From: Eledone cirrhosa | Lineage: Eukaryota | Assembly (NCBI GenBank): GCA_964016885.1 | Contig: OZ024740.1 | Span: forward strand, 400,148,001 to 400,212,000 | Length of the DNA stretch: 64,000 nt | Reading direction: 5' to 3' | In this document: positions 2,333 to 64,000 of the stretch, in pieces | Numbering within the stretch: position 1 is the first letter of the stretch | Layout: each line of letters begins with the position of its first letter | Notes under the pieces: model-generated | Databases searched by the model: none | Told to the model about the DNA's origin: nothing | Seen by the model: only the letters and a program-made list of their open reading frames with translations | Position numbers and translations under genes: made by a program

Positions 2333-4779
2333 TTCATAATTTACAGGATATTACAAATTCAGAAATTAGCTTCAATTATTAAAGAACAAAATTTATGATT
2401 TTTTTTCACGGTTAAGATCATTAGCTTTCCAAACAACTTAGGTGACTTACTGTTAAATAGATACCATGCGATCTATATGTCCAAACAGAATGAGTGTCTA
2501 TTTGTTTCACAAATATCTCTGTATTATACAGAGTGAATTTGAGACAATAGAAGCAACCAGTGGAATAGATATTTATAGTCAAAATTAGACAGTAAAATGT
2601 AAAGAAACTACTAATTGTTTGAGTCGGCATATAGTGAATAAAAATAGTTGATAAAGTGGAATAAGTTAATGAGTCGCTAGAAAAAGAAGAGAATTACCGG
2701 TGGGTGCTTTATCGGAGGAGTAAGAATTTACTATCAATACAAAGTTATATATAGAGTCTAGTGCATGACACATGACTGCTCCTATCAAATAATTACGGAC
2801 ATGAGAATAGATGATAGAGTAGAATTCTTTAGTGTTATTAAACCAAACATTCCAAATTTAGGCGAACATTAAATACGTAAACTTATCAAAAATATTTGAG
2901 ATTCCATGATTTCTGACATCAAACATGTTATAGAACAATACTATATTTGTCTCCAAAAGACTCAGTAATACAACCAAATCTGTTCTCCAGAACGCTGTAG
3001 AATTTAATAGCTATTTTCCTCCAAAATTGGGGGTTTTGAGATTTATGTTATAGTGCTCGCTAGATACATTTTGCTGTTACAAAGAATACTTTGGGGGTTA
3101 AACATAGTAACACGTTTTAGGTAAGTGACTGTAAGATCGGTTTGTGGTTGTGAATTAATACACTTACATAATACATATAGACGTGAAGAGTTTCTGCTAT
3201 GCAGAATCCGATCTTTCGATGGGAAAAAAAGTTAATGGTAATACAATGAATGCTCTGAGGCAAGAGTTCGTCAGCATATAGATTTAGAGTCAGATGATTT
3301 CAGATCAGAGTTTAAACTAATCTAAGTAAAGTTAATTTCTTAAATAAATCCTTAGAATTAGGTAGTAATCAATACTTTCCATATAGTAAAACTAACGAGA
3401 AATTCAGTATATTAACATAAATCTCACGTTATTTTAGTTAGTTAATAACATTAATCACATATCCAGCTTATTACTTGAAACAATGCTACTCGTTATTATA
3501 AGGATTCATTAAAAGACAGTATCTTCAAAGATGGAATATATTACATAAAGAACAAGGCTAATATTCTTACATGTAAATGTATACAACGTTGGATGTTTTG
3601 GTGCAATTTGCCTATAGTTTAGACTTTCGGTCCAATGTTTCCAGGATATTCCTAATTGATACAAATACGAGTTTTCCAATATACAATAGATAGAATAAGT
3701 TCTTGGCTGAAGTAGGCATTAAAACAAGTTTAACCCTCACGCAGAACCAACGTTGCGCAATATGTAATAAGCTTGGACATATCCATTACAAATACAATTC
3801 ATCTGATGGGCTTCTACACAGTTTTCGTCCTCAAAATTTCATAACGAAAATACAAAGAATAATATTAACAGTTATAAGATTGGGTGTACTCTTATAGGAC
3901 ATGTCCTCTCCATTATTGTTTCCAGAATATACAATCTCTGTTTCACGGAGATGTCAAATTTCCTATTACAGCTTTCGATTTTCAACACAGCATCAAATTG
4001 CTGATTGCTTGCAGTCCTTTCTATCGCTGTTTAGTGAAGAATTTCCAACTACCAACATATCTGCATATATTTTCTACATAATAGATTTGCTATACCCCGA
4101 AAGGTGATCATATATAAAGTTATTCATCAATACAAAAACACCATCAACAGTATCTTCTTCCGTGGTCCACGTAGGCCTTTTGGGTAGGATACAGAAGAAA
4201 TTTATGAAAATATCACATATGTTTGTATGTGATGATGAACAAATGAATGTATAGCGCATTTTCAGACGTTTCTTTGGTAACCAATCAAATTTCGATGTAT
4301 AATTGACTTATAATATTTCGATGTGTTTGCGAATATCTTTGTTGCCTTTACGCTTCCAGTCCTTAAGCTATCGTAAACACGGGATTCAGATTCTTCAGAT
4401 TTGAATAAATACATACAAATTATATATTAGATACGTTATACAAATCTCTATACATAAACGATAATAAATCCATACATACAAAATTTAATGAAAGCTGCGT
4501 TGTCCCTTGCAGGAATTGGAAATTTGCAGGTCAGGAAGTAGGGAGTAGACGCAAGTGTTACTCTTAGTCACAACGCAATGGGTGTTTTGTCTGGAAGGAA
4601 ATAGTTTCCTTTTGATATTACAGCAAGATATAAATGTGTTGACTGATATGTGGCGAGCGTATGTGAGGGATGACAATGTGACAGGTGGCGTGGCTGAGAT
4701 GGGGCAATAGCAGAAGAAGGAATAGACAGGTATATGTAATAGAAGGGTGTATATAGAAATGTTATATCTATAGAAAAAT

Positions 4780-5425
4780 AGAAGTTATGATTTAAGATGT
4801 TCTCAAGGATGAAACTAAACTGGAAGCCCTTTTAAATGTTATATCAAAGTGAGTGGGGTTCCATTAAAGCAGGCGAAGAAGTTCACTTATCTCGGGGTTG
4901 TGTTAATGAATGATGGAAGGCAGAAGGCCCCGGTGATGCTCGGCGAAACCATCCGTTGGTAAACGGCCAATTTCTCCGATGTAGACAAAACTGGAGGTGG
5001 TGCAGCGGAAGGAGTCCCTAACTCGGAAGGCCTGACCGTGGGAACATGTGAGAGTTGAGGTGTCAGTGAGGAAGTTGCATATGTGGTAGCGGCGTCGGGA
5101 GGAGTGGGGGCCGGCGAAGGAGTTGGGAAGAAGAAAGGAACTGTGGTTGAGGAGATTCCGAAGGTAGCGTACACGATTGAAGGAGGGGTGGGAGTTGGTG
5201 GGTCCTGCAGGAGAGGGCGGAAGAGACGAAGGATCGTCATCTGGAGAGTAAATGTAGAGGGGTGCCAGTGAGTAGGTTGGTGGTGGTTGCAGAATGGGGT
5301 AGGTTGGGTTGGGTGGGGGGCCTCGATGCGCGGGCGTGGTTGCGGTCGACGTCACGGACACGAGTGTTGGCGGCTTGAATGAAAGTGGGTGGGGGCGGAG
5401 CATCACCGAGGTAACAGTCAAGCTA
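4780..5425 (-). mobile_element. Penelope-like element fragment (Cys linker + GIY-YIG endonuclease), degenerate
   Basis: ORF 4903..5421 ends ...RRRYHICNF...RDSFRCTTSSFVYIGEIGRLPTDGFAEHHR, matching the YIGETGR.L..RF.EH motif. Confidence 0.8.
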
Positions 5426-5472
5426 TATAATTAAGTTAGAAATGGCCTGGGCCAATACTAGCCGAAACTTAT

Positions 5473-5544
<72 letters not shown>

Positions 5545-5546
<2 letters not shown>

Positions 5547-5770
5547 TCTCTAGCGATCGACTTTCGTCAAATCGGACCGAGGAAACAATGTTTCCGTTGG
5601 TCTTTCCAATTGCTAGTACTATCTATCGGTCGCAACTCCAGGTAGAAGGAGCAAAGTGAAATAAAGTGCCTTGCTCAAGGACATAACGCATCGCCTGGTC
5701 CAGGAATCGAACTCACAACCTCATGATTGCGAATCCAATTCCCTAACCACTCAGCCACACGCCTTCACTA
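5545..5770 (-). mobile_element. tRNA-derived SINE, family B
   Basis: Minus strand gtggctgagtggttagg (A box) ... gagttcgattcc (B box) ... cttgagcaaggcactttatttc. Related copies at ~13470-13770 (+), ~22030-22200 (-) and ~32280-32435 (-). Confidence 0.75.
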
Positions 5771-6593
5771 TATATATATATAGAAGTTATGATTTGAGAT
5801 TTAAGATGTTCTCAAGGATGAAACTAAACTGGAAGCCCTTTTAAATGTTATATCAATGTTATATCAAAGTGAGTGGGGTTCCATTGAAGCAGGCGAAGAA
5901 GTTCACTTATCTCGGGGTTGTGTTAATGAATGATGGAAGGCAGAAGGCCCCGGTGATGCTCGGCGAAACCATCCGTTGGTAAACGGCCATTCGGAAATTG
6001 CGTTTCGCTAATTTCTACCCGCCGAAATGCGATTCTCGCTGAATTTATATTTGTCTGTATATATATATATATATATATTTTTAGATAATTCTATTGACTG
6101 ATTAATTGCTTAAGTTTATTTTAAAAACTACTCGGTCGAGAGCTTAATTCGATTTGTGCTGTTTTTGCAATTTTTGCATCGACTACACATACTGAATTCA
6201 TTTGCCAAATTTGGGGTTTTCTCCCCTGTAGAGTTACACATGTGCTTTCAAAACACTGTGAGATTCAAAACGCTGGCGCAGAACAAAATACCTGTTGAGA
6301 AAGTGATATCCTTGTTCGATCATTATACCAAAATCTTATTTTTTTAAGCAGACAGTATTATTGCTTTAGGTGTCGCAGAAACCCTGTACTGGGTAAATAT
6401 TTCATTCATATTTTGTTTGACCCGTTTAGCTTGCTTCGTTTTTTTGGCTTGGGTGGTCAGTTTGTATGGCCTTTATAACACATGTTTATTGCTCTGGTCT
6501 CTTTTGGTCCATGGAGCGCTTGCCAACACAATTCGGAAATTGCGTTTCGCTAATTTCTACCCGCCGAAATGCGATTCTCGCTGAATTTATATT

Positions 6594-16652: not shown

Positions 16653-17082
16653 ACGGAAAAAACGTTTTTTCCGTTCATTGCCAGAGAACGTCTCTATGAA
16701 CCACCTAAGAGAACATTAGTCTACGACCTCTTTTATACCATAAACGTGGTTCTGTCTTTGCGCGTAATTGTTTTTCACCGCTCCAAATAATGACGTATTA
16801 TATTCGTTTTTTCCCGTTCTTTGCCAGGGAACGTTTCCACGAACCAAAGTATCGTCTTCCTGTCTTCCTCCGGCTGCAACGTTTTTTGAAATATTCACTT
16901 CTGCGTTCACAGATTGACTTTGTTAGTTTCAGAAGATCCCGTTAAGGGTGAAAGCAGCGATTCTTTGCTTAAACTTTAATCTGTTATTTTAATAAATATT
17001 TGCTCTACGGTTCTTATATATTTGATATATATTTATCCTTATCGAGCCCTCTTTGGATTTTAGTCTTCACATTTATTATTAT

Positions 17083-17116
<34 letters not shown>

Positions 17117-17251
17117 AAAGAGTCAGGATACTGACGGCTGAGCTCCGGCTGTTTCGACAGCTAGATCCGAATATATATATTTCTACGAGGTGTGTCTGAA
17201 AAGAAGCTGGACTGGGGTCGCCAAAAATATTTCAAACTATACGTTTTCGCT

Positions 17252-17417
17252 TTTGGCACAAGGCCAGCAATTAACCAGTTCATTACTCGTACTTTATTTT
17301 ATCGACCCGGTAAGGATGAAAGGCAAAGTTAACCTCGACGGGATTTGAACTCAGACCGTAAAGGGACGTAACTATGCTGGAAAGCATGGCGTGCGACCCT
17401 CCACCGATACTGCCAAT
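17252..17417 (-). mobile_element. SINE family A (3' end clipped)
   Basis: Matches the other family A copies. Confidence 0.85.
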
Positions 17418-17661
17418 TAATCACCCTAGTAATATATAGTAATAATAATAAATGTGAAGACTAAAATCCAAAGTTGGCTCGATAAGGATAAATATATATC
17501 AAATGTATAAGAACCATAGAGCTTCAGAAGATCCCATTAAAGGTGAAAGCAGCGATTCTTTGCTTAAACTTTAATCTGTTATTTTAATATATATATATTT
17601 ATATATACGTATATATATATTTGTTTTGCACTCGTACAGGTCCGTATATATGGGACCAATA

Positions 17662-17861: not shown

Positions 17862-18658
17862 AAGTCGTGTCATCCGCCTCATACAAAACACAACCTCCCA
17901 TACTGCCTAACCAGAAGAATTTGTACCATTGTAGAAAATATGAATACCAGCAACAAACGCCTAACAGAACTGAGAGAAGTTTTGCTCAAACAAAAATAAC
18001 CATCTCTACTTATAGAAAATGGCACACAGTGGGCTTTAAAAATACCTAAAGAACAACTTAGGACAACCCAAGGAAGAAGAAACCAAGAACTGGTCATACC
18101 ATTTATATTGACACATAACCCATGTCACCAGAATATCTTCAACACTGCCAAAGTAAACCTACCGATCATTGCTCAAAGTAATGAATTAAAAGGTTTAATC
18201 ACAGACCGATCTTTGACTCTTAGTAAAAGACAGCCGAAAAATTTGAACAAAAGCAAAGTTTGACCTTAACAACAAAGACCAATTATTCACTGTATCTAAA
18301 TGCAATGATAGTCGATGTGGCACATGTCAATCCATACACACTGGTCAAGACAAAAACTGGAAAAATATTCCCAAATGCAAATATGAACTGCAAAAGCAGA
18401 AATCTAATTTACTGCATTAAATGCCCGAATTGTGAAGAACTATATGTCTGTCAAACTGGAAATGCACTATCGGAACGTGCACGACTGCACCGACAGAAAA
18501 TCATCGACTCAAATGTCCGTCAGATACCCCTGAGTAACCATCTAGCAACATGTGGCCAGAAAATATTTATAATATTTCCATTCTACAAATTACACAGCCC
18601 AATCAAGAGAAGAATTAAAGAAAAGAATTTTATTGATAAATTCTAACCCAAGTTAAAT
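17862..18658 (+). mobile_element. Penelope-like (Neptune-type) element fragment, RT C-terminus + GIY-YIG, frameshifted
   Basis: SCHPPHTKHNLPYCLTRRICTIV; NCKSRNLIYCIKCPNCEELYVCQTGNALSERARLHRQ...KEKNFIDKF; begins directly at a (TA)n tract. Confidence 0.9.
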
Positions 18659-27761: not shown

Positions 27762-27823
<62 letters not shown>

Positions 27824-27832
<9 letters not shown>

Positions 27833-28507
27833 CGTTTAAATCGCAAGGGGTCAGATTCGCTAAGGTGAAAAGAATACTAACTATAGACGATTCTGGTCCC
27901 TTGTGATTTGAACGCATATATGTATATGTCTGTGTTCGTTTTTCTTTTATATTCAATTATAATATACGGCTGGCAAATATCTCTTTCTTAGAGCTATTTT
28001 GTTGTAAGAGACTATTTTGAGTTACTAACTCAATATATACCTTTGATATAATTCGGCTTCGTTAACTTGTTGAGCTATTTCAAATGTCGAATAAACCTGG
28101 CTCCTATTTTTAGTGGTGTAAGTTTGTGAGACACCATGTGCGCTATAAATATATATATAGCACAATATTCAGTTTCTTGATTTACTTAGAAGTGTCTAGG
28201 ATACTAATTTATCACCCACTGATGAGCATAAATTGGTAATTCTATTCACAATTGATTCTGCGAAACAACACCAAGTTGTCTGGGTGATTGGTAGTTACCA
28301 CAATTCCGGTTTGTATTTATTTTCTTGATTTTTTTTCTTAAATTGAGACAGGCAGACCTAATTGTCTATAGTTAGTATTCTTTTCACCTTAGCGAATCAG
28401 GTCCCTTGCGATTTGAACGCATATATGTATATATCTGTGTTCGTTTTTCTTTTATATTCAATTATAATATACGACTCGGAAATATCTCTTTCTTAGAGCT
28501 ATTTTGT

Positions 28508-28512
<5 letters not shown>
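27824..28512 (+). mobile_element. ORF-less hammerhead element: ~505-bp unit in partial tandem with a 5' inverted arm, flanked by (TA)n
   Basis: ~27893-28004 repeats at ~28400-28510; 27828-27885 is the inverse of ~28362-28422; hammerhead at 28211-28288. Confidence 0.75.
28211..28288 (+). ncRNA. Type I hammerhead ribozyme, canonical core
   Basis: atcaccca CTGATGA gca-..aattg..caatt..-tgc GAAA caac accaa gttg TC tgggtgat. 8-bp stem I, G10.1-C11.1 pair, GUC cleavage after 28280. Confidence 0.9.
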
Positions 28513-28556
<44 letters not shown>

Positions 28557-29420: not shown

Positions 29421-30258
29421 ATTTATGTATGCATGTGTGTCAAAATAACTATGCTACAAAATAACTATGATACACGAACACACATTATTTAATATATAAT
29501 TTGAACTGGAATTTTTAAGACTTTCAAGATGTCAATGTATTTCAGTGTCTAAGTATTGACAGTGTGTATATGTTGCACATATGTGCATTTACAGCAGGAA
29601 AGTTTATATCTGTGAGTATTTCCTTTTCCGCATCCCACACACATCTCTTCAAATCTGGTTTATCAATTTTCTTATAAAATCCGCTCACATGATGTGCTCC
29701 TTGCATTTCTTTGACTCCCCTATCTCTCTCTCTCTCTCGCTCCCTCGCTCTCTCTCTTTCTTGCACGCTCTCTCTCTCTCTCTCCATCTCTCTCTCTATA
29801 TCTATCTATCTATCACGTTCACTCTCACTATATAACTTTGATAACTTTGATAGTGTTTGGCCACTATTGGCCCAGGCCATGTCTAACTTAATAGCACCAC
29901 CTAGCAATAGCACCAAAACACACGCACGCACTATTACACCCTAGAAAGACTATCAAAAAGGCTCCAATCACACACAAAATATCTATAGTTACTGAAATTT
30001 ATTTAAAATTTTTTAAAGTGATAAATTTTAACTTCGTCTCTAGGCTTTCATAAATTTTAACGTTTTCCCAACAATAATTGTATGCTACTGTCTACAGTTT
30101 TCGTTCTTTCCTCTTCTAGAACATGTAAGGTTTTTATCTATTTCTATTTGATCCATTCCGAGAAGTTATCCTAACAGGTATGGAATATATTGTTAGTCTA
30201 ACGGAATGATTGTAAATTAATTAAATGCTTTATCTAAAATCCTTATTAATATGTATGT

Positions 30259-30726
30259 ATATATATTTGAAAAAAGGAAAAGAATGACTTCACTTGTTCT
30301 AAACAATTTAATTTTATAATATTATAATTTCCCAATTTGGTTTTGTAGATCTAGTAAGTTCTTTGTTAACTTCCGTGGGGAGAATTTTTTAAAGAATCCT
30401 GGTTAACTTTCCTGGAGAACTTTCTTTTAGCCGAATCAACTATCTTAAATTTATAACTCCACCCTCAGCCCAGACACACCCAAATCTTTTACATATAGAG
30501 TCACATATCACAACACAACCTGAGATCAGTTTGACAATCGCCACCGAAGAATGCGAGAAAGTTCTCCAGGAAAGTTAACCAGGAATCTTTAAAAAAATCT
30601 CCCCACGGAAGTTAACAAAGAACTTACTAGATCTACAAAACCAAATTGGGAAATTATAATATTATAAAATTAAATTGTTTAGAACAACAAGTGAAGTCAT
30701 TCTTTTCCTTTTTTTCAAATATATAT
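30259..30726. repeat. ~165-bp inverted repeat, probable Penelope pLTR pair
   Basis: 30259-30425 is the near-perfect inverse of 30556-30726; degenerate core ccgaaga...gaaagttaac at the junction; TA tracts at both ends. Confidence 0.85.
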
Positions 30727-30752
30727 AACTCTACCAAACATTTCACACATAT

Positions 30753-39932: not shown

Positions 39933-40253
<321 letters not shown>

Positions 40254-40290
40254 CGTAAAATAAGAAAATTAACTTACTTACTTAAATTTC

Positions 40291-40372
40291 ACTCGCAACT
40301 AATTAGTTTCTGAAAGGGATTAAACGTACTATCCGAAGAGAGCACGGAGAAGCCTTTCGTCATCAGGGAAGT
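40291..40372 (-). ncRNA. Type I hammerhead motif (copy 1)
   Basis: acttcc CTGATGA c gaaagg...cctttc a GAAA ctaattag TT gcgagt; one mismatch in stem I. Confidence 0.75.
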
Positions 40373-40811
40373 CTATTCTCAGCTAAGTTCCCAGGCAATA
40401 CGTGGACACAGGGAACTTATACAAAAATAATTCAGTGGATGGAAAAGGCAAAGCGAGGACTAATTCCAAGCCATTGATAAAATCACTGCCTACTGCGTCG
40501 GTGGCAAATTCAAAAGAATCAATCACGTGACATCGAGGTCAATCAGTGGATAGTGGTTTGTTAGTAAGACAGCAGCCGCAACGTTACTATAGCAGCAGTT
40601 TTGGCCATTTTTGCTCGACAAATAATTTTGGAGATAATTATAAAGAATTAGTATATCTAGTAACATATATATACACAGATGCATACTTATGTTAGCAAAT
40701 ATATAGGTTTTGTCTTAGTAACTATGTGGTTCAATGCATGGGGTAGCAGAACAATAATATGAGAGACGTAAAATAAGAAAATTATAAAATTAACTTACTT
40801 ACTTAAATTTC

Positions 40812-40893
40812 ACTCCCAACTAATTAGTTTCTGAAAGGGATTAAACGTTCTATCCGAAGAAAGCACAGAGAAGCCTTTCGTCATCAGGGAAGT
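40812..40893 (-). ncRNA. Type I hammerhead motif (copy 2)
   Basis: acttcc CTGATGA c gaaagg...cctttc a GAAA ctaattag TT gggagt; 6-bp stem I; palindromic stem III (aactaattagtt). Confidence 0.8.
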
Positions 40894-40955
40894 CTATTCT
40901 CAGCTAAGTTTCCAGCAATACGTGGGCACAGGGAACTTATATATATACTATATAT

Positions 40956-41204
40956 AGAGTTATAAACTCAAACAGTCTTTTACAATTAAATAGCTCAAAG
41001 AAAGAGATATTTCTGAGCCGTGAAATACAAATTAATATATGATAAACACTAATACAAGTATATAAGTGTTTGTATTGCAAATGACCAAGTTAGCTAGATT
41101 GAAAAATACTAATTTAATTAGTATTTTTCAATCTAGGTAACTTGGTCATATGCAATACAAACACTTATATACTTGTATTAGTGTTTATCATATATTAATT
41201 TGTA
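40956..41204 (-). mobile_element. Diverged relative of the 27.8-28.5 kb element with a ~90-bp fold-back
   Basis: Minus strand acggctcagaaatatctctttctttgagctatttaattgtaaaagactgtttgagtt versus acggctggcaaatatctctttcttagagctattttgttgtaagagactattttgagtt at 27966; hairpin 41025-41204. Confidence 0.7.
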
Positions 41205-42112
41205 TATATATGTACATTGATATTAAATAAATGGAAACTATATTTATAAAACCTTATTTATTCTATTATATATATTTCAAGGGCACCAAAATGTTGGTAC
41301 GCTGTCATCAGATAAAATACAAAATGTTTTATAAATATTTGACATAACCAAGGATAATATACCTTAACGGTTCAAGTTATCCCTGGAAAGTGAAGGGAAG
41401 TGAAAAAAACAGATATTTAAAATTATTAATATGAGTATGCAAATGAGGTTTATGTAAAAGGACTGAAAAAAACGTTATTTTAGACGCTATGGAAAATTTA
41501 AATAATTATGATAAGTTATGGTATGCGTAGGAAGGAAGAAAAAGGAATAACGTTAATTTAGGGGGAAAAGATTTGTTACCTATATTATGAGTTATAATAT
41601 TGTATATATAATCAATTAGATTATATGAAGAATTATGTTTGTAAGTATTTTTATCTTATTACATTAGGATAGGTTATATGTATATAAATATCTATATATA
41701 TTTTAATAAGTTGCATATGTATTGATTGTTTATATATCACATATGAGGATGTTGAAATTGTATTTTCAAGTTGTGAGAGTAGAATAATTTCTGGATTCAA
41801 AAATGTTGTTCACCATTGAGAATGTTTTCAGAATGTTGTTAATTTAACGAAGCTATATATTATCAAACAAAAAATCGTTATGTTTTCACGATTGATAAGA
41901 GTGTTTATGTTTTCACGATTGAGAAAGGAAAAATAACTCCAATTTTGTTTGTTAACCATTAAAATTAGAGAAAAAAACTTATTATTATACTCCAGAAATA
42001 CTGTTGAGTGCTCTAAATCAATTATAAACATTTATATTTGTTGAATTACCAACAAATTGAATATCCCTTCTGCTTATATATATATGTATGTATATATATA
42101 TATATATATATA

Positions 42113-42550: not shown

Positions 42551-42729
42551 CATTTTCGCTCTACATGGCTGAATACAATAAATGTAATGTGAGGTTTTCG
42601 AATATCGATAATATTATTCGATTCGTTTGCAATTATGCAAACAAGCCTCATTTTTAAAACCATGTCAGTAGAATGAGCCCCTCATTCTTGCTCTTGTGTT
42701 GGCATGTAAACAGAGTTTTTCGAATATTA

Positions 42730-43025
42730 ATAATTGTTTCTACTTTTGGTACAAGGCAAGTAATTTCCCAGTGTATTACTGGTACTTTATTTTATCGAGC
42801 CCGTAAGGATGAAAGGCAAAGTTAACCTCGGCGGGATTTGAACTCAGACCATAAAGGGACCAAAGCATGGTGTCCAACTCTCTACCGATACTACCAATCC
42901 ATAATAATTATTTCTACTTTAGGCACAAGGCCAGCAAATATCCAGTACATTACTGGTACTTTATTTTATCGAGCCCGTAAGGATGAAAGGCAAAGTTAAC
43001 CTCGGCGGGATTTGAACTCAGACTG
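42730..43025 (-). mobile_element. Two tandem SINE family A copies
   Basis: tttatcgagcccgtaaggatgaaaggcaaagttaacctcggcgggatttgaactcagac occurs twice. Confidence 0.85.
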
Positions 43026-43212
43026 TAATAATGATATCCGATTCGTTTGCAATTATGCAAACAAGCCTCATTTTTAAAGCCATGTCAGTGGCTAATATGC
43101 AGTCTGACTGATCAGCCAGTCTGCTAACATGCAAATCAGGCCGATCAGTCACTGTATATTTTAGAAAGTATCATATATTGTCACTAGCTCTGACAGTTGG
43201 CAGGTATACAGT

Positions 43213-43261
43213 GAACTGTACTGATGAAGGGTATACCCAGAAACATTAGTGTCTGCAGTTC
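43213..43261 (+). ncRNA. Type I hammerhead ribozyme motif
   Basis: gaactgta CTGATGA a ggg tata ccc a GAAA ca ttag tg TC tgcagttc; 8-bp stem I; GUC cleavage after 43253. Confidence 0.85.
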
Positions 43262-43983
43262 TGTTTACATGCCAACGCAAGAGCAAGAATGAGGAGCTCA
43301 TTCTACTGGCATGGCTTTAAAAATGAGGCTTGTTTGCATAATTCCCAACGAATCGAATATTATTATTAATATTCGAAAAGTTCAGATTACATTTATTGTA
43401 TTCAGCCATGTAGAGCGAAATTTTCTTTTTTTTTAATATGGCAAAGCCGTCTATTGATCGCTTGTATACAGGAAATTGACTGGCCAGTCTCCTGATATGC
43501 AAATCTGGCTGATCAGTGGATCTACAAATAATTTATTTCTAGGACATAATTACATAAATGTTCAGCTTGTATGTACAAATGACACGAGGTATTAAATGTA
43601 TGAGTAACTTTGGAAAGGTTACAATTTACATGAAAATATATAGGGTTAGCATCCAGGATCCTGTAATACAAAATTGAACTTCATATTGTTGCAACATGAC
43701 TGGGAAATGCTTTGTGTATGTGTGTGAGTGTGTAAATTATAAAGAATTACAGAGAGGACGAACGATCTCAGCAATATATAAGGTGATACACACACACAAA
43801 CTTACAAACAATACACAACATCTCACATATTTCCCCTTTTCTATTCTTTGTTTTTTAATCTATTTAATATTGTACTCTCCTGATGACAGACTAACATCCA
43901 ATACGTCGAACAGTTTTCTCTCTTTCATCTAAAGCATAAATCTAATAACACTAATTGTTTTGTATCTCTGTGTATTGTCATTT

Positions 43984-57974: not shown

Positions 57975-58230
57975 ACGAAGGAAATGTGGTAAGGAACCAG
58001 GTGGACCATAACGCACCAAAGTACTCGATACTTAGGGTAGTAGAGTGGGTAATAGGAACAAGTAAGACCCCGACGGCTGAGCTCAAGCCGTTTCGACGGC
58101 TAATTCTGGACTAACAAGTAAGACCCCGATGGCTGAGCTCAAGCCATTTCGACGGCTAATTCTGGACTAGAGTCCAGAATTAGCCGTCGAAACGGCTTGA
58201 GCTCAGCCGTCGGGGTCTTACTTGTTCCTA
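57972..58230 (-). mobile_element. (TA)n-flanked hammerhead-half micro-element with a 56-bp tandem duplication and an inverted arm
   Basis: 58057-58112 repeats at 58113-58168 and is inverted at 58171-58230; GAAAcggct tgagctc agccgTC ggggtct; same family as 9669-9800. Confidence 0.85.
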
Positions 58231-58314
58231 TATATATACATATATATATATATATACATATAATATTAATTCAAAATATTAACCAAATAGATATTCTTGT
58301 GATCAATTATATTT

Positions 58315-58375
58315 TATTATACATATTTCAGAGGTACTGAATTAAGTTCAACAGTACGTCCTCATCAGATAAAAT
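58315..58375 (-). ncRNA. Hammerhead-like motif, weak stem I
   Basis: Minus strand tat CTGATGA ggac gtactg..cagtac ctct GAAA tatg TA; a homolog lies at ~41268-41325 (-). Confidence 0.5.
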
Positions 58376-59150
58376 AAAATGATACATGACATACCCTGAC
58401 ATGGTAGATGGCTAAGATTTAATCAAGGTAGTGATTAACTTATGATAAAACTCAATATTTATACCCTAATATTGAGAACATGAGAAAACGTAATACAAAC
58501 AATAGAGAGAGTGTGAGTAATATATTTTTAGAAATACATGGCATCAATATAACAGTTATAGAATTTTTTATTTTTAAAAACTACTAGAGAAAGAGGAGGG
58601 AAAGGAAAGCATATAGGAAGAAACAGCTGATGTGATAACTTATTTAGTATTTAGCTTGAGAAGACAGATGAACGATGATTGAAGAGAGAGAGAGAGACAA
58701 AGGGGAGTAATTTATGTTCAAGTTTCTACACACACAGATTCTTATATAGTATAGTTGGCGGTTAATTTTCAAAATATTTAATTTATGTTATTTCAGGGTA
58801 AAGAATCACATTTTAGGTTTTAAAAGTTAATAGGTATTTGTATTAATATTATAATATAATTATGTTAAATTTCTAAAATTCAAATGTTATGAAAACAAAT
58901 TTAAAGGATTTACGAAACCCGAGAAAGAAAGAATATATATATATATAATGTTTTATATCCTCACGAAGGTAATCTTTACCAAAATTACTTATAATATTGA
59001 CAACAGTTTCTATAATATAATTTTTAAGATATTTATAGTTATAACTACTAAAGAATTTATTGTTAAATAGTTTGAGTGCCTAAAGTATCAAACGGCCTTA
59101 TAATTAAACTTAAAGAAGTCAGAATTTTCAACTATATATATGTATTGATC

Positions 59151-59333
59151 ATAATTGTTTCTACTTTTGGCACAAGGCCAGAAATTATCCCAATGCATTA
59201 CTGGTACTTTATTTTATCGACCCCGTAAGGATGAAAGGCAAAGTTAACCTCGACGGGATTTGAACTCAGACCCTAAAGGGACGAAACTATGCTGGAAAGC
59301 ATGGCGTCCGACCCTCTACCGATACTGCCAATT
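59151..59333 (-). mobile_element. SINE family A, full length
   Basis: Matches the other copies. Confidence 0.85.
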
Positions 59334-59497
59334 CTTATAATATATAATTGATCACAAGAATATCTATTTTGTTAATATTTTGAATTAATATTAATAACTC
59401 TGGAAAATATTTTTTTTCTATAGAGTGCTTCCAATCTATTGTAAAACTCATTCTTTGATGTATTCATTGAATCTTGTTTAACTATTAAATATATATA

Positions 59498-62222: not shown

Positions 62223-62294
62223 CTAACACGAGGATGATGATATGATCCCCACCACTATCCCTCCCCCATCATCATCATCAGCAGCAGAAGCAAG

Positions 62295-62325
<31 letters not shown>

Positions 62326-62396
62326 AACATGCAAGGACAATAACACCATCAATAACAACAATCTGCAGCAAGAATAACAACTACAAATAAAACAAG

Positions 62397-64000
62397 AACA
62401 ACTACCACAATAGCCACCACCATAGCCACCACCACACGACCTGACCATACTACCTCCCATACAACAACAACAGGGAAACAACTACCACAATAGCCACCAC
62501 CATAACCACCACCACACGACCTGACCATACTACCTCCCATACAACAACAACAGGGAAACAACTACCACAATAGCCACCACCATAACCACCACCACACGAC
62601 CTGACCATACTACCTCCCATACAACAACAACAGGGAAACAACTACCACCATAGCCACCACCATAGCCACCGCCACACGACCTGACCATACTACCTCCCAT
62701 ACAACAACAACAGGGAAACAACTACCACAATAGCCACCACCATAGCCAACACCACACGACCTGACCATACTACCTCCCATACAACAACAACAGGGAAACA
62801 ACTACCACAATAGCCACCACCATAGCGACCACCACACGACCTGACCATACTACCTCCCATACAACAACAACAGGGAAACAACTACCACAATAGCCACCAC
62901 CATAACCACCACCACACGACCTGACCATACTACCTCCCATACAACAACAATAGGGAAACAACTACCACAATAGCCACCACCATAGCCACCACCACACGAC
63001 CTGACCATACTACCTCCCATACAACAACAACAGGGAAACAACTACGACAATAGCCACTACCATAACCACCACCACACGACCTGACCATACTACCTCCCAT
63101 ACAACAACAACAGGGAAACAACTACCACAATAGCCACCACCATAGCCACCACCACACGACCTGACCATACTACCTCCCATACAACAACAACAGGGAAACA
63201 ACTACCACAATAGCCACCACCATAGCCACCACCACACGACCTGACCATACTACCTCCCATACAACAACAACAGGGAAACAACTACCACAATAGCCACCAC
63301 CATAGCCACCACCACACGACCTGACCATACTACCTCCCATACAACAACAACAGGGAAACAACTACCACAATAGCCACCACCATAACCACCACCACACGAC
63401 ATCACCATACTACCTCCCATACAACAACAACAGGGAAACAACTACGACAATAGCCACCACCATAGCCACCACCACACGACCTGACCATGCTACCTCCCAT
63501 ACAACAACAACAGGGAAACAACTACCACAATAGCCACTACCATAACCACCACCACACGACCTGACCATACTACCTCCCATACAACAACAACAGGGAAACA
63601 ACTACCACAATATCCACCACCATAGCCACCACCACACGACCTGACCATACTACCTCCCATACAACAACAACAGGGAAACAACTACCACAATAGCCACCAC
63701 CATAGCCACCACCACACGACCTGACCATACTACCTCCCATACAACAACAACAGGGAAACAACTACCACAATAGCCACCACCATAGCCACCACCACACGAC
63801 CTGACCATACTACCTCCCATACAACAACAACAGGGAAACAACTACCACAATAGCCACCACCATAACCACCACCACACGACCTCACCATACTACCTCCCAT
63901 ACAACAACAACAGGGAAACAACTACGACAATAGCCACCACCATAGCCACCACCACACGACCTGACCATACTACCTCCCATACAACAACTACAGGGAAACA
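62397..64000 (+). repeat. 80-bp tandem satellite, ~20 near-identical copies, runs off the window end
   Basis: aacaactaccacaatagccaccaccatagccaccaccacacgacctgaccatactacctcccatacaacaacaacaggga; ORF track shows an 80-bp period. Confidence 0.97.

Follow-up and report, generated by a model that had tools for sequence, protein, structure and literature searches.

A dispersed, non-coding 505-nt repeat of Eledone cirrhosa with a type I hammerhead motif and Penelope-type insertion ends

A repeat that encodes no protein, carries a hammerhead ribozyme motif and partly repeats itself at its end raises the question of what kind of element it is and on what template it is copied. Such a repeat is found in the stretch of DNA analysed here, 64,000 nucleotides of contig OZ024740.1 from Eledone cirrhosa (hereafter the window). 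The repeat is 505 nt long and protein-free, carries a type I hammerhead motif, has Penelope-type ends and occurs among repeated copies. The interpretation that we favour on balance is that of a non-autonomous Penelope-like element (PLE), or non-LTR retrozyme, which would move by way of a probably circular RNA and a borrowed enzyme that primes on both sides of one cut.

The full unit lies at 27888..28392 on the plus strand (u1-505 in the family A numbering) and has a GC content of 32.5%. As the original prediction had described, it is an ORF-less unit of ~505 bp; the longest ATG ORF in a unit dimer has only 23 codons. The unit is followed by a second unit start (u1-118, 28393..28510, plus strand), the end of a tailed (T-type) arm that is 45 nt short of u163. 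The direct repeat 27888-28005/28393-28510 is therefore 118 nt long, with 94% identity at a distance of 505 nt and with the ribozyme outside it, in agreement with the ~110 bp of redundancy predicted. On the other side is an inverted short-end (S-type) arm (27825..27892, minus strand), which consists of ~u473-505 and then u1-40 and is ~40 nt shorter than usual; in alignment, 27818-27892 matches 28360-28434 over 75 nt at 92%. The two arms meet head-to-head at 27888..27892, where they overlap by ~5 nt. The whole is bordered by (TA)n tracts at 27767..27824, the likely target site, and at 28513..28553. Both the 5' inverted arm and the (TA)n on both sides had been noted before.

Three further landmarks were located on the plus strand of the unit. 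The first is the family's short 3' end site (S, u76-79) at 27963..27966, which is read through in the window copy. It is followed by a ~84-nt tail (27967..28050) that closes with the tailed 3' end site (T) at 28050 (u163). Motifs that we label TATA-like and initiator-like by their consensus lie 26 nt apart at 28143..28174; a promoter function is presumed, and the initiator-like motif is also present in the related family B described below. The outer ends of the window copy, u40 and u118, are thus ~40-45 nt short of the family's usual ends at u76-79 and u163, and the 118-nt redundancy is a peculiarity of this copy in which both outer ends fall short of the family sites. In other copies the internal TA run of the unit (28144-28158 in the window, u257-271) is often expanded or broken by other insertions (loci L113, L118 and L124), which suggests that the element seeds new targets.

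A motif scan of both strands of the 64-kb window identified three hammerhead-like motifs. That in the unit, at 28211..28288 (plus strand), has stems I, II and III of 8, 3 and 5 bp and a predicted cut between 28280 and 28281. Stem I (28211-28218/28281-28288) consists of 8/8 Watson-Crick pairs, the core comprises CTGATGA (28219-28225), GAAA (28262-28265) and GTC (28278-28280), and stem III is an A-T pair plus 4 bp enclosing a 5-nt loop. With an open stem I, three stems and an NUH site, the motif has type I topology, and the canonical core, 8-bp stem I, stem III and GUC site that had been claimed were all located. Stem II, described as extended in the original prediction, is weaker, with three contiguous pairs, an internal loop and five further pairs. 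Neither was the hammerhead the predicted minimum in two-dimensional folding: its energy was -19.7 kcal/mol vs -20.3 kcal/mol for the minimum (0.6 higher; z -0.73 vs shuffles). The predicted minimum-energy fold is a rival hairpin, in which the core and a part of the stem II insert form pairs, and the hammerhead fold made up ~10% of the predicted ensemble in the window copy and <2% in 4/4 other copies. The stems are long enough for the cleavage as a monomer that the original prediction expected, but the rival hairpin is predicted to include the core.

An Rfam scan of the whole window returned 129 matches, nearly all microsatellite artefacts, and no hammerhead. When a 201-nt excerpt was used, RAGATH-1-hammerhead was matched below threshold (23.1 bits vs a gathering score of 56.3, E 0.063). 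This weak alignment also covers a small hairpin at 28190-28210, just upstream of stem I, which is a possible tertiary-contact partner. A plant LTR retrozyme, with a type III hammerhead in LTRs, a PBS, a PPT and a 4-bp TSD, was considered and rejected, the topology being type I and the structure head-to-head instead of LTR-flanked.

The unit belongs to a dispersed family, as predicted, with hundreds to thousands of copies in the 3.0 Gb host genome. A search with the unit gave 2852 first-look candidates, 40 of which were scored. The ribozyme region gave 1566 candidates, and the region was present at 93-100% in 40/40 of those scored, so that the hammerhead is not confined to the window copy. A 19-nt tail motif had 486 exact genome matches (reversed control, 0); a family A motif taken from the window copy had only 10, because of a private base. 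This large repeat family was missed by Rfam.

The diverged relative reported near 40956-41204 is real, with 73% identity over u16-164, and belongs to a sister family, family B. The copy is a head-to-head pair without ribozyme (40945..41205; tailed arm 40945-41114 on the minus strand, short arm 41116-41205 on the plus strand) and holds just the 3' end of the unit; family B itself has a hammerhead-homologous region. Units of family B are 498-560 nt long and 63% alike to family A over the whole unit, and two family B motifs had 591 and 2201 exact genome matches. Family B is the younger of the two, with an arm-to-arm difference of 1.7% vs 4.6% in family A. Several subfamilies with 498-560-nt units have evolved separately. 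A third relative (L099:5495-5903), found by chance, is 69% identical to family A; it shares the two 3' ends, and its core is decayed.

Variation in the ribozyme was assessed in 114 anchored regions, of which 109 were parsed into stems and core; the anchor missed the U3:A8 subfamily and one row was mis-parsed. Stem I occurred in four fully paired versions (30, 39, 5 and 2 of the 109 copies) and 7/8 of its pairs change on both sides, while stem III shows an A-T to G-C swap within family A. Compensatory changes, proposed as a check in the original prediction, were thus found in stems I and III, in subfamilies that are related and so represent few independent events. Since the stems covary, the fold is kept, and the ribozyme appears from these alignments to be under selection, at least as a structure.

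The core gave a different picture in the two families. CTGATGA was retained in 41/44 family A copies and the canonical core in only 10/61 parsed family B copies, the other 51/61 having U4C-, U4A- or A6C-type variants or, in one subfamily, U3:A8; another hammerhead motif scan missed the divergent cores. According to the available text of PMC3088659, U3:A8 core covariation is active, and A6C and U4C are weak but active. Family B may therefore have spread with possibly slower ribozymes, and cleavage is possibly unneeded, because only 10/61 of its cores are canonical although it is the younger family. The at least eight core variants in separately amplified family B subfamilies form a natural series in which ribozyme activity can be set against mobility. 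Family B subfamilies (L164, L213, L197, L172 and L229) were also observed to contain a 37-nt duplication inside the stem III region.

The ends of the insertions were mapped in genome order in 91 family A loci, from the first 100 tail-motif matches listed, and in 82 family B loci (chromosome C1 plus two), from the first 100 motif matches listed. Overlapping duplicate loci, two family B loci (L209 and L181), family B arms of <85% identity and unclassified 3' ends were dropped before arms were counted, and target duplications inside TA tracts were left unscored. The arms have two fixed 3' ends ~84 nt apart, short (u76-79; 53/133 classified family A arms) and tailed (u163; 80/133), and their 5' ends are scattered. 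TA-rich DNA was present at 108/133 family A outer ends. Loose (TA)n ends at 28050 were also found in 40, 42 and 33 contigs of three runs from one public sample, the contigs being of unspecified kind and perhaps not independent. The circularly permuted ends for which a test had been proposed were not seen across copies: only the 5' ends are random, and the two fixed 3' sites rule out free circular permutation.

The arms are paired according to a strict rule. Family A yielded 56 head-to-head pairs, and all 39 that could be classified joined a short and a tailed end (39/39, with no tail+tail pair). Among 58 pairs in family B, 48 were classifiable, giving 43 short+tail, four tail+tail and one short+short. 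Tail+tail pairs are expected at one third if ends are independent (p 1.4e-7 in A and 7e-5 in B). Because the two tail-motif scans under-sample short+short pairs, family B was scanned a second time with a motif common to both arm types; this sample (25 loci, four repeating the first) contained 13 pairs, nine short+tail, none short+short, none tail+tail and four unclassified. Family A loci picked by similarity contained 39 pairs, with 20 short+tail and two tail+tail. In one copy (L291) a 92-nt piece (~u450-505 plus u1-42) is repeated head to tail several times, which suggests local slippage or a series of template jumps.

In these insertions the 3' ends are fixed and the 5' truncation is random, partial tandems and an adjacent inverted copy occur, and the target is (TA)n. 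The combination of inverted arm, tail and (TA)n target is the signature of a PLE, which the original prediction had missed, and we regard the element as very probably a non-autonomous PLE. Inverted arms and TA targets are superficially also those of a MITE, and the Rfam score was below threshold, so that a DNA-level repeat (a satellite monomer, a MITE or a Helitron-like element) with a chance hammerhead motif was considered; the fixed 3' ends with random 5' truncation, the compensatory stem changes and the difference in arm length between copies make this extremely improbable.

How the inverted pair forms was addressed by comparing the two arms of each insertion. The partner arm was closer than the median other arm in 25/25 (A) and 28/28 (B) pairs tested, and was the single closest arm in only 5/25 and 5/28, which indicates from sequence likeness that paired arms come from one subfamily. 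In 67/82 pairs one arm reached >20 nt beyond the other, the short-end arm being further upstream in 40/82 and the tailed arm in 27/82. Either arm could be longer by >100 nt (31 and 16 pairs), and arm lengths were uncorrelated over the 82 pairs. The inner ends were near-equal (within 20 nt) in 15/82 pairs, where ~6 are expected, and the arms overlapped at the junction by 1-18 nt in alignment in 48/82.

These data bear on a model in which a single cDNA folds back and copies itself, after which the endonuclease trims one end to leave a one-sided tail. In the available text of PMC3846280 snap-back was proposed for PLEs from junction palindromes, and in that of PMC8557442 the tail is attributed to EN resolution; the junction overlaps and the near-equal inner ends would agree with this. 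The arms are not nested, either may be the longer and their lengths are uncorrelated, which speaks against simple snap-back and favours priming on RNA by each DNA end. As a general explanation snap-back is thus improbable, and it may lie behind the near-equal minority (15/82). The overlaps and near-equal inner ends also fit two antisense cDNAs that anneal at self-complementary spots.

Twin priming on one RNA is, in our view, likely. The closeness of partner arms supports a single template, and the small number of pairs in which the partner is the closest arm of all speaks against it. PLE biochemistry suggests how it could begin: a PLE RT-GIY-YIG protein supplied in trans would cut both strands of a (TA)n tract. 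According to the available text of PMC11167929, the PLE tail results from two internal starts of reverse transcription, with cleavage and extension of both strands. The two DNA ends would prime, one each, on the same RNA at the two fixed internal sites ~84 nt apart that are seen in the insertions. The two cDNAs would then be joined at short self-complementary overlaps, so that the resulting head-to-head pair carries a tail at one end only.

To identify the template, the passage of arms through the predicted cleavage site was counted. Family A arms met the site 83 times, crossing it in 65 and stopping at -8..+5 in four (4.1 expected); for family B there were 106 encounters, 81 crossings and two stops within 5 nt (3.9 expected). 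Stops 6-40 nt downstream of the cut numbered 23 in family B vs 12.4 expected, and 14 in family A vs 10.3. The initiator-like motif was passed in 46/49 family B encounters. Two apparent pile-ups of 5' ends were rejected. A cluster at the cleavage site in the family A loci picked by similarity was absent from the genome-order sample, and one near b380 in family B was an artefact of the subfamily duplication in stem III, for which family B was mapped with five references. Arms longer than one unit were found in 30/133 (A) and 31/135 (B) and reached 2.4 units, the longest accepted arm being 1310 nt; 3/133 family A and 11/135 family B arms crossed the cleavage site at least twice, and the window copy holds one ribozyme.

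As arms pass the cleavage site with no pile-up and reach 2.4 units, the template is either a circle, a multimer left uncut, or monomers between which the RT jumps, and a cleaved linear monomer is not the usual one. The circular or multimeric template of the original prediction thus stands on the arms longer than a unit. The argument originally given for it, the offset of the redundancy from the cleavage site in the window copy alone, is no proof, because the inner 5' end is a random truncation at the inversion.

The main alternative accepts the same non-autonomous PLE and twin priming, but a read-through transcript or a linear multimer that was never cut serves as template, or the RT jumps between monomers. 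The ribozyme would be mostly idle at integration, possibly restrained by the rival hairpin until protein binds. Arms that cross the cleavage site freely fit uncut RNA as well as a circle, and the variant cores of 51/61 family B copies and the predicted rival hairpin agree with it. From the available text of PMC11167929, unprocessed RNA serves as the principal substrate in vitro, insertion is normal with ribozyme mutants and protein assists the ribozyme; in that of bioRxiv 2026.07.22.740005, 8/9 Xenopus retrozyme dimers were uncleaved in vitro. The covarying stems speak against an idle ribozyme, in that the fold is kept, as does the passage of the initiator-like motif in 46/49 family B encounters against an uncut template. 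No long tandem array or donor was found among the mapped A and B loci, where the longest arm was 1310 nt; if copying were linear, random 5' truncation would be expected to leave shorter donors after every round.

Comparison of tandem units was less decisive. By a crude pairwise test tandem units differed more than paired arms (3.0% vs 2.0%; 15 loci, p 0.01), as a linear multimer donor predicts. A site-matched test of three copies did not repeat this: the upstream tandem unit was not the odd one out in either family A (33/37/22, 1325 sites) or family B (25/35/26, 2082 sites), and so showed no excess of differences. The site-matched test is given more weight, and a young multimer donor passes both. 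Taken together, an uncut template appears rather unlikely, and a circle rather than an uncut multimer is the template that we prefer with modest confidence.

According to the available text of PMC7229834, retrozymes accumulate as circles. In the present family a multi-unit copy would be transcribed, and the hammerhead would excise a monomer that is closed into a circle. Each cDNA, as the insertions show, ends at a random point and runs through the ribozyme site, sometimes for more than one round, and arms longer than a unit would regenerate multi-unit donors. In its most specific form, which we put forward tentatively as somewhat less than an even chance, a ribozyme-made 500-nt circle would be copied by a PLE RT-endonuclease dimer that primes from the two ends of one double-strand cut, each end at its own one of two fixed sites 84 nt apart, and copying would roll past the ribozyme. 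If true, such a circle/dimer rule would account for the PLE tail, for the head-to-head inversion and for how tandem copies are renewed.

The genome was examined for a source of the enzyme. Two young autonomous families, PLE-1 and PLE-2, have intact 775-codon RT + GIY-YIG (RT-EN) frames (L091:1862-4189, L348-L355; window 18227-18646), PLE-1 having been reached from a GIY-YIG-like fragment of the window and PLE-2 from a locus fragment. PLE-1 had 144 scored matches at 98-100% and has two 3' ends of its own, 49 nt apart, in (TA)n. Its terminal region was not clearly above shuffles in comparison with A and B (z -0.9 to 2.9, with 2.9 in one of four comparisons), and that of PLE-2 scored 37-40 vs 31-33 +/- 5, where the control, A vs B, scored 240 vs 39. 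These comparisons, by alignment score, covered the two intact autonomous families only, other PLE families not having been recovered whole. Naiad-like and other PLE fragments were present in loci, and window 4890-5351, used as a query, had no match other than itself at E 1e-20. PLE-1 and PLE-2 each have an upstream ORF that overlaps, and have in common the T-TTT-TTA slippery site (11/11 loci), which is not new, a frameshifted ORF1 being given already in the legend to Fig. 1 of PMC8557442. The hammerhead core of PLE-2 has U3:A8.

The copies could instead be merely 5'-truncated pLTR remnants of an autonomous PLE that was not found in the searches, with no family of their own; colinearity with a coding element's pLTR only was the alternative named in the original prediction. 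PLE insertions are heavily 5'-truncated according to the available text of PMC8557442, and the comparison covered only two autonomous families of a genome that also contains Naiad-like and other fragments. Among frames of at least 150 codons in 90 loci, none with RT-EN was colinear with the unit. The arms circle the ORF-less 505-nt unit from its 3' end back into the tail and onward, and the subfamilies of 498-560 nt have evolved separately. As the unit is closed, this explanation is largely refuted and is very improbable.

The element is of a kind already known, the non-autonomous PLE or non-LTR retrozyme; the family is new to Rfam annotation. The repeat is non-coding, a few hundred bp long and of GC <45% (32.5%), with one type I hammerhead per unit. 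In the available text on animal non-LTR retrozymes (Cervera and de la Pena 2020, PMC7229834; Li, Clavereau and Pollet 2026, bioRxiv 10.64898/2026.07.22.740005) the unit is likewise non-coding and low in GC and has a single canonical type I hammerhead; copies range from monomer to multimer, and autonomous PLEs occur alongside. Unit sizes are 150-450 bp in the former and 51-972 in the latter, compared with 505 nt here. Retrozymes are described as tandem arrays, whereas the present copies are mostly dispersed sub-unit arms in head-to-head pairs with fixed tailed and short ends. In the text available, the word 'inverted' is absent from PMC7229834 and confined to the references of bioRxiv 10.64898/2026.07.22.740005, from which 'tail' is absent. 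Circles have been demonstrated for animal retrozymes, whereas for the present family they are predicted.

EN+ PLEs, as far as described in the available text of PMC3846280, PMC8557442 and PMC11167929, resemble the present family in several respects. They form partial tandems next to a 5'-truncated copy in inverted orientation, insert at (TA)n, mostly carry the tail on one side only, use two internal start sites and have a hammerhead that lies upstream of their 3' ends. In contrast to these, the present family has no ORF, a tail of ~84 nt (80 in B) rather than 30-40, no homologous coding partner found, and a canonical ribozyme with long stems where theirs is minimal. Non-autonomous Chlamys PLEs such as MRC1 (available text of PMC8557442) are similar as non-coding, pLTR-forming, multicopy units moved in trans. 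They share 3' sequence with an autonomous family and lie head-to-tail, whereas here no similarity to a partner was seen and the hammerhead is canonical.

The mechanism of inverted one-tailed PLE insertions and the enzyme that moves animal retrozyme circles are stated to be open in the available text of PMC8557442, PMC7229834 and PMC11167929. A search of titles and abstract beginnings returned no such family and no count of short+tail pairs, a weak result, as most subscription journals and repeat databases lay outside the search. Hundreds of short natural insertions with countable ends provide a record for testing PLE and retrozyme integration, and the counts already separate models by strict short+tail pairing, non-nested arms and the lack of a stop at the ribozyme. 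As one genome provides both intact PLE families and a template of 505 nt whose two start sites are mapped, circle and linear templates can be tested against each other. Were the circle/dimer rule true, the insertions would be evidence for the use of PLE machinery by animal retrozyme circles with no need of pLTR sequence identity.

Other repeats were observed in the window and the loci. Adjoining the family B copy, window 40248-40941 forms a further unit, in which a direct repeat of 182 nt has a spacing of 513 nt; its minus strand has a core-like motif near 40880, and family B copies in L160 and L170 are flanked by similar sequence. A second hammerhead-like motif at 58318-58368 (minus strand) has an 8-bp AU-rich stem I, adjoins a 185-nt hairpin and a 51-nt inverted repeat (58052-58231, 58267-59387), and has counterparts in L183 and L214. 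PLE-like geometry, with direct and inverted repeat units, was seen at 16925-17594, 30258-30727, 42554-43420 and 4769-5989, with spacings of 595, 420, 174 and 1002 and inverted arms of 161-172 nt. An unrelated tandem hammerhead repeat in L220 has two motifs 655 nt apart, and window 62237-63976 is an 80-nt tandem satellite of ~20 units with 97-98% identity.
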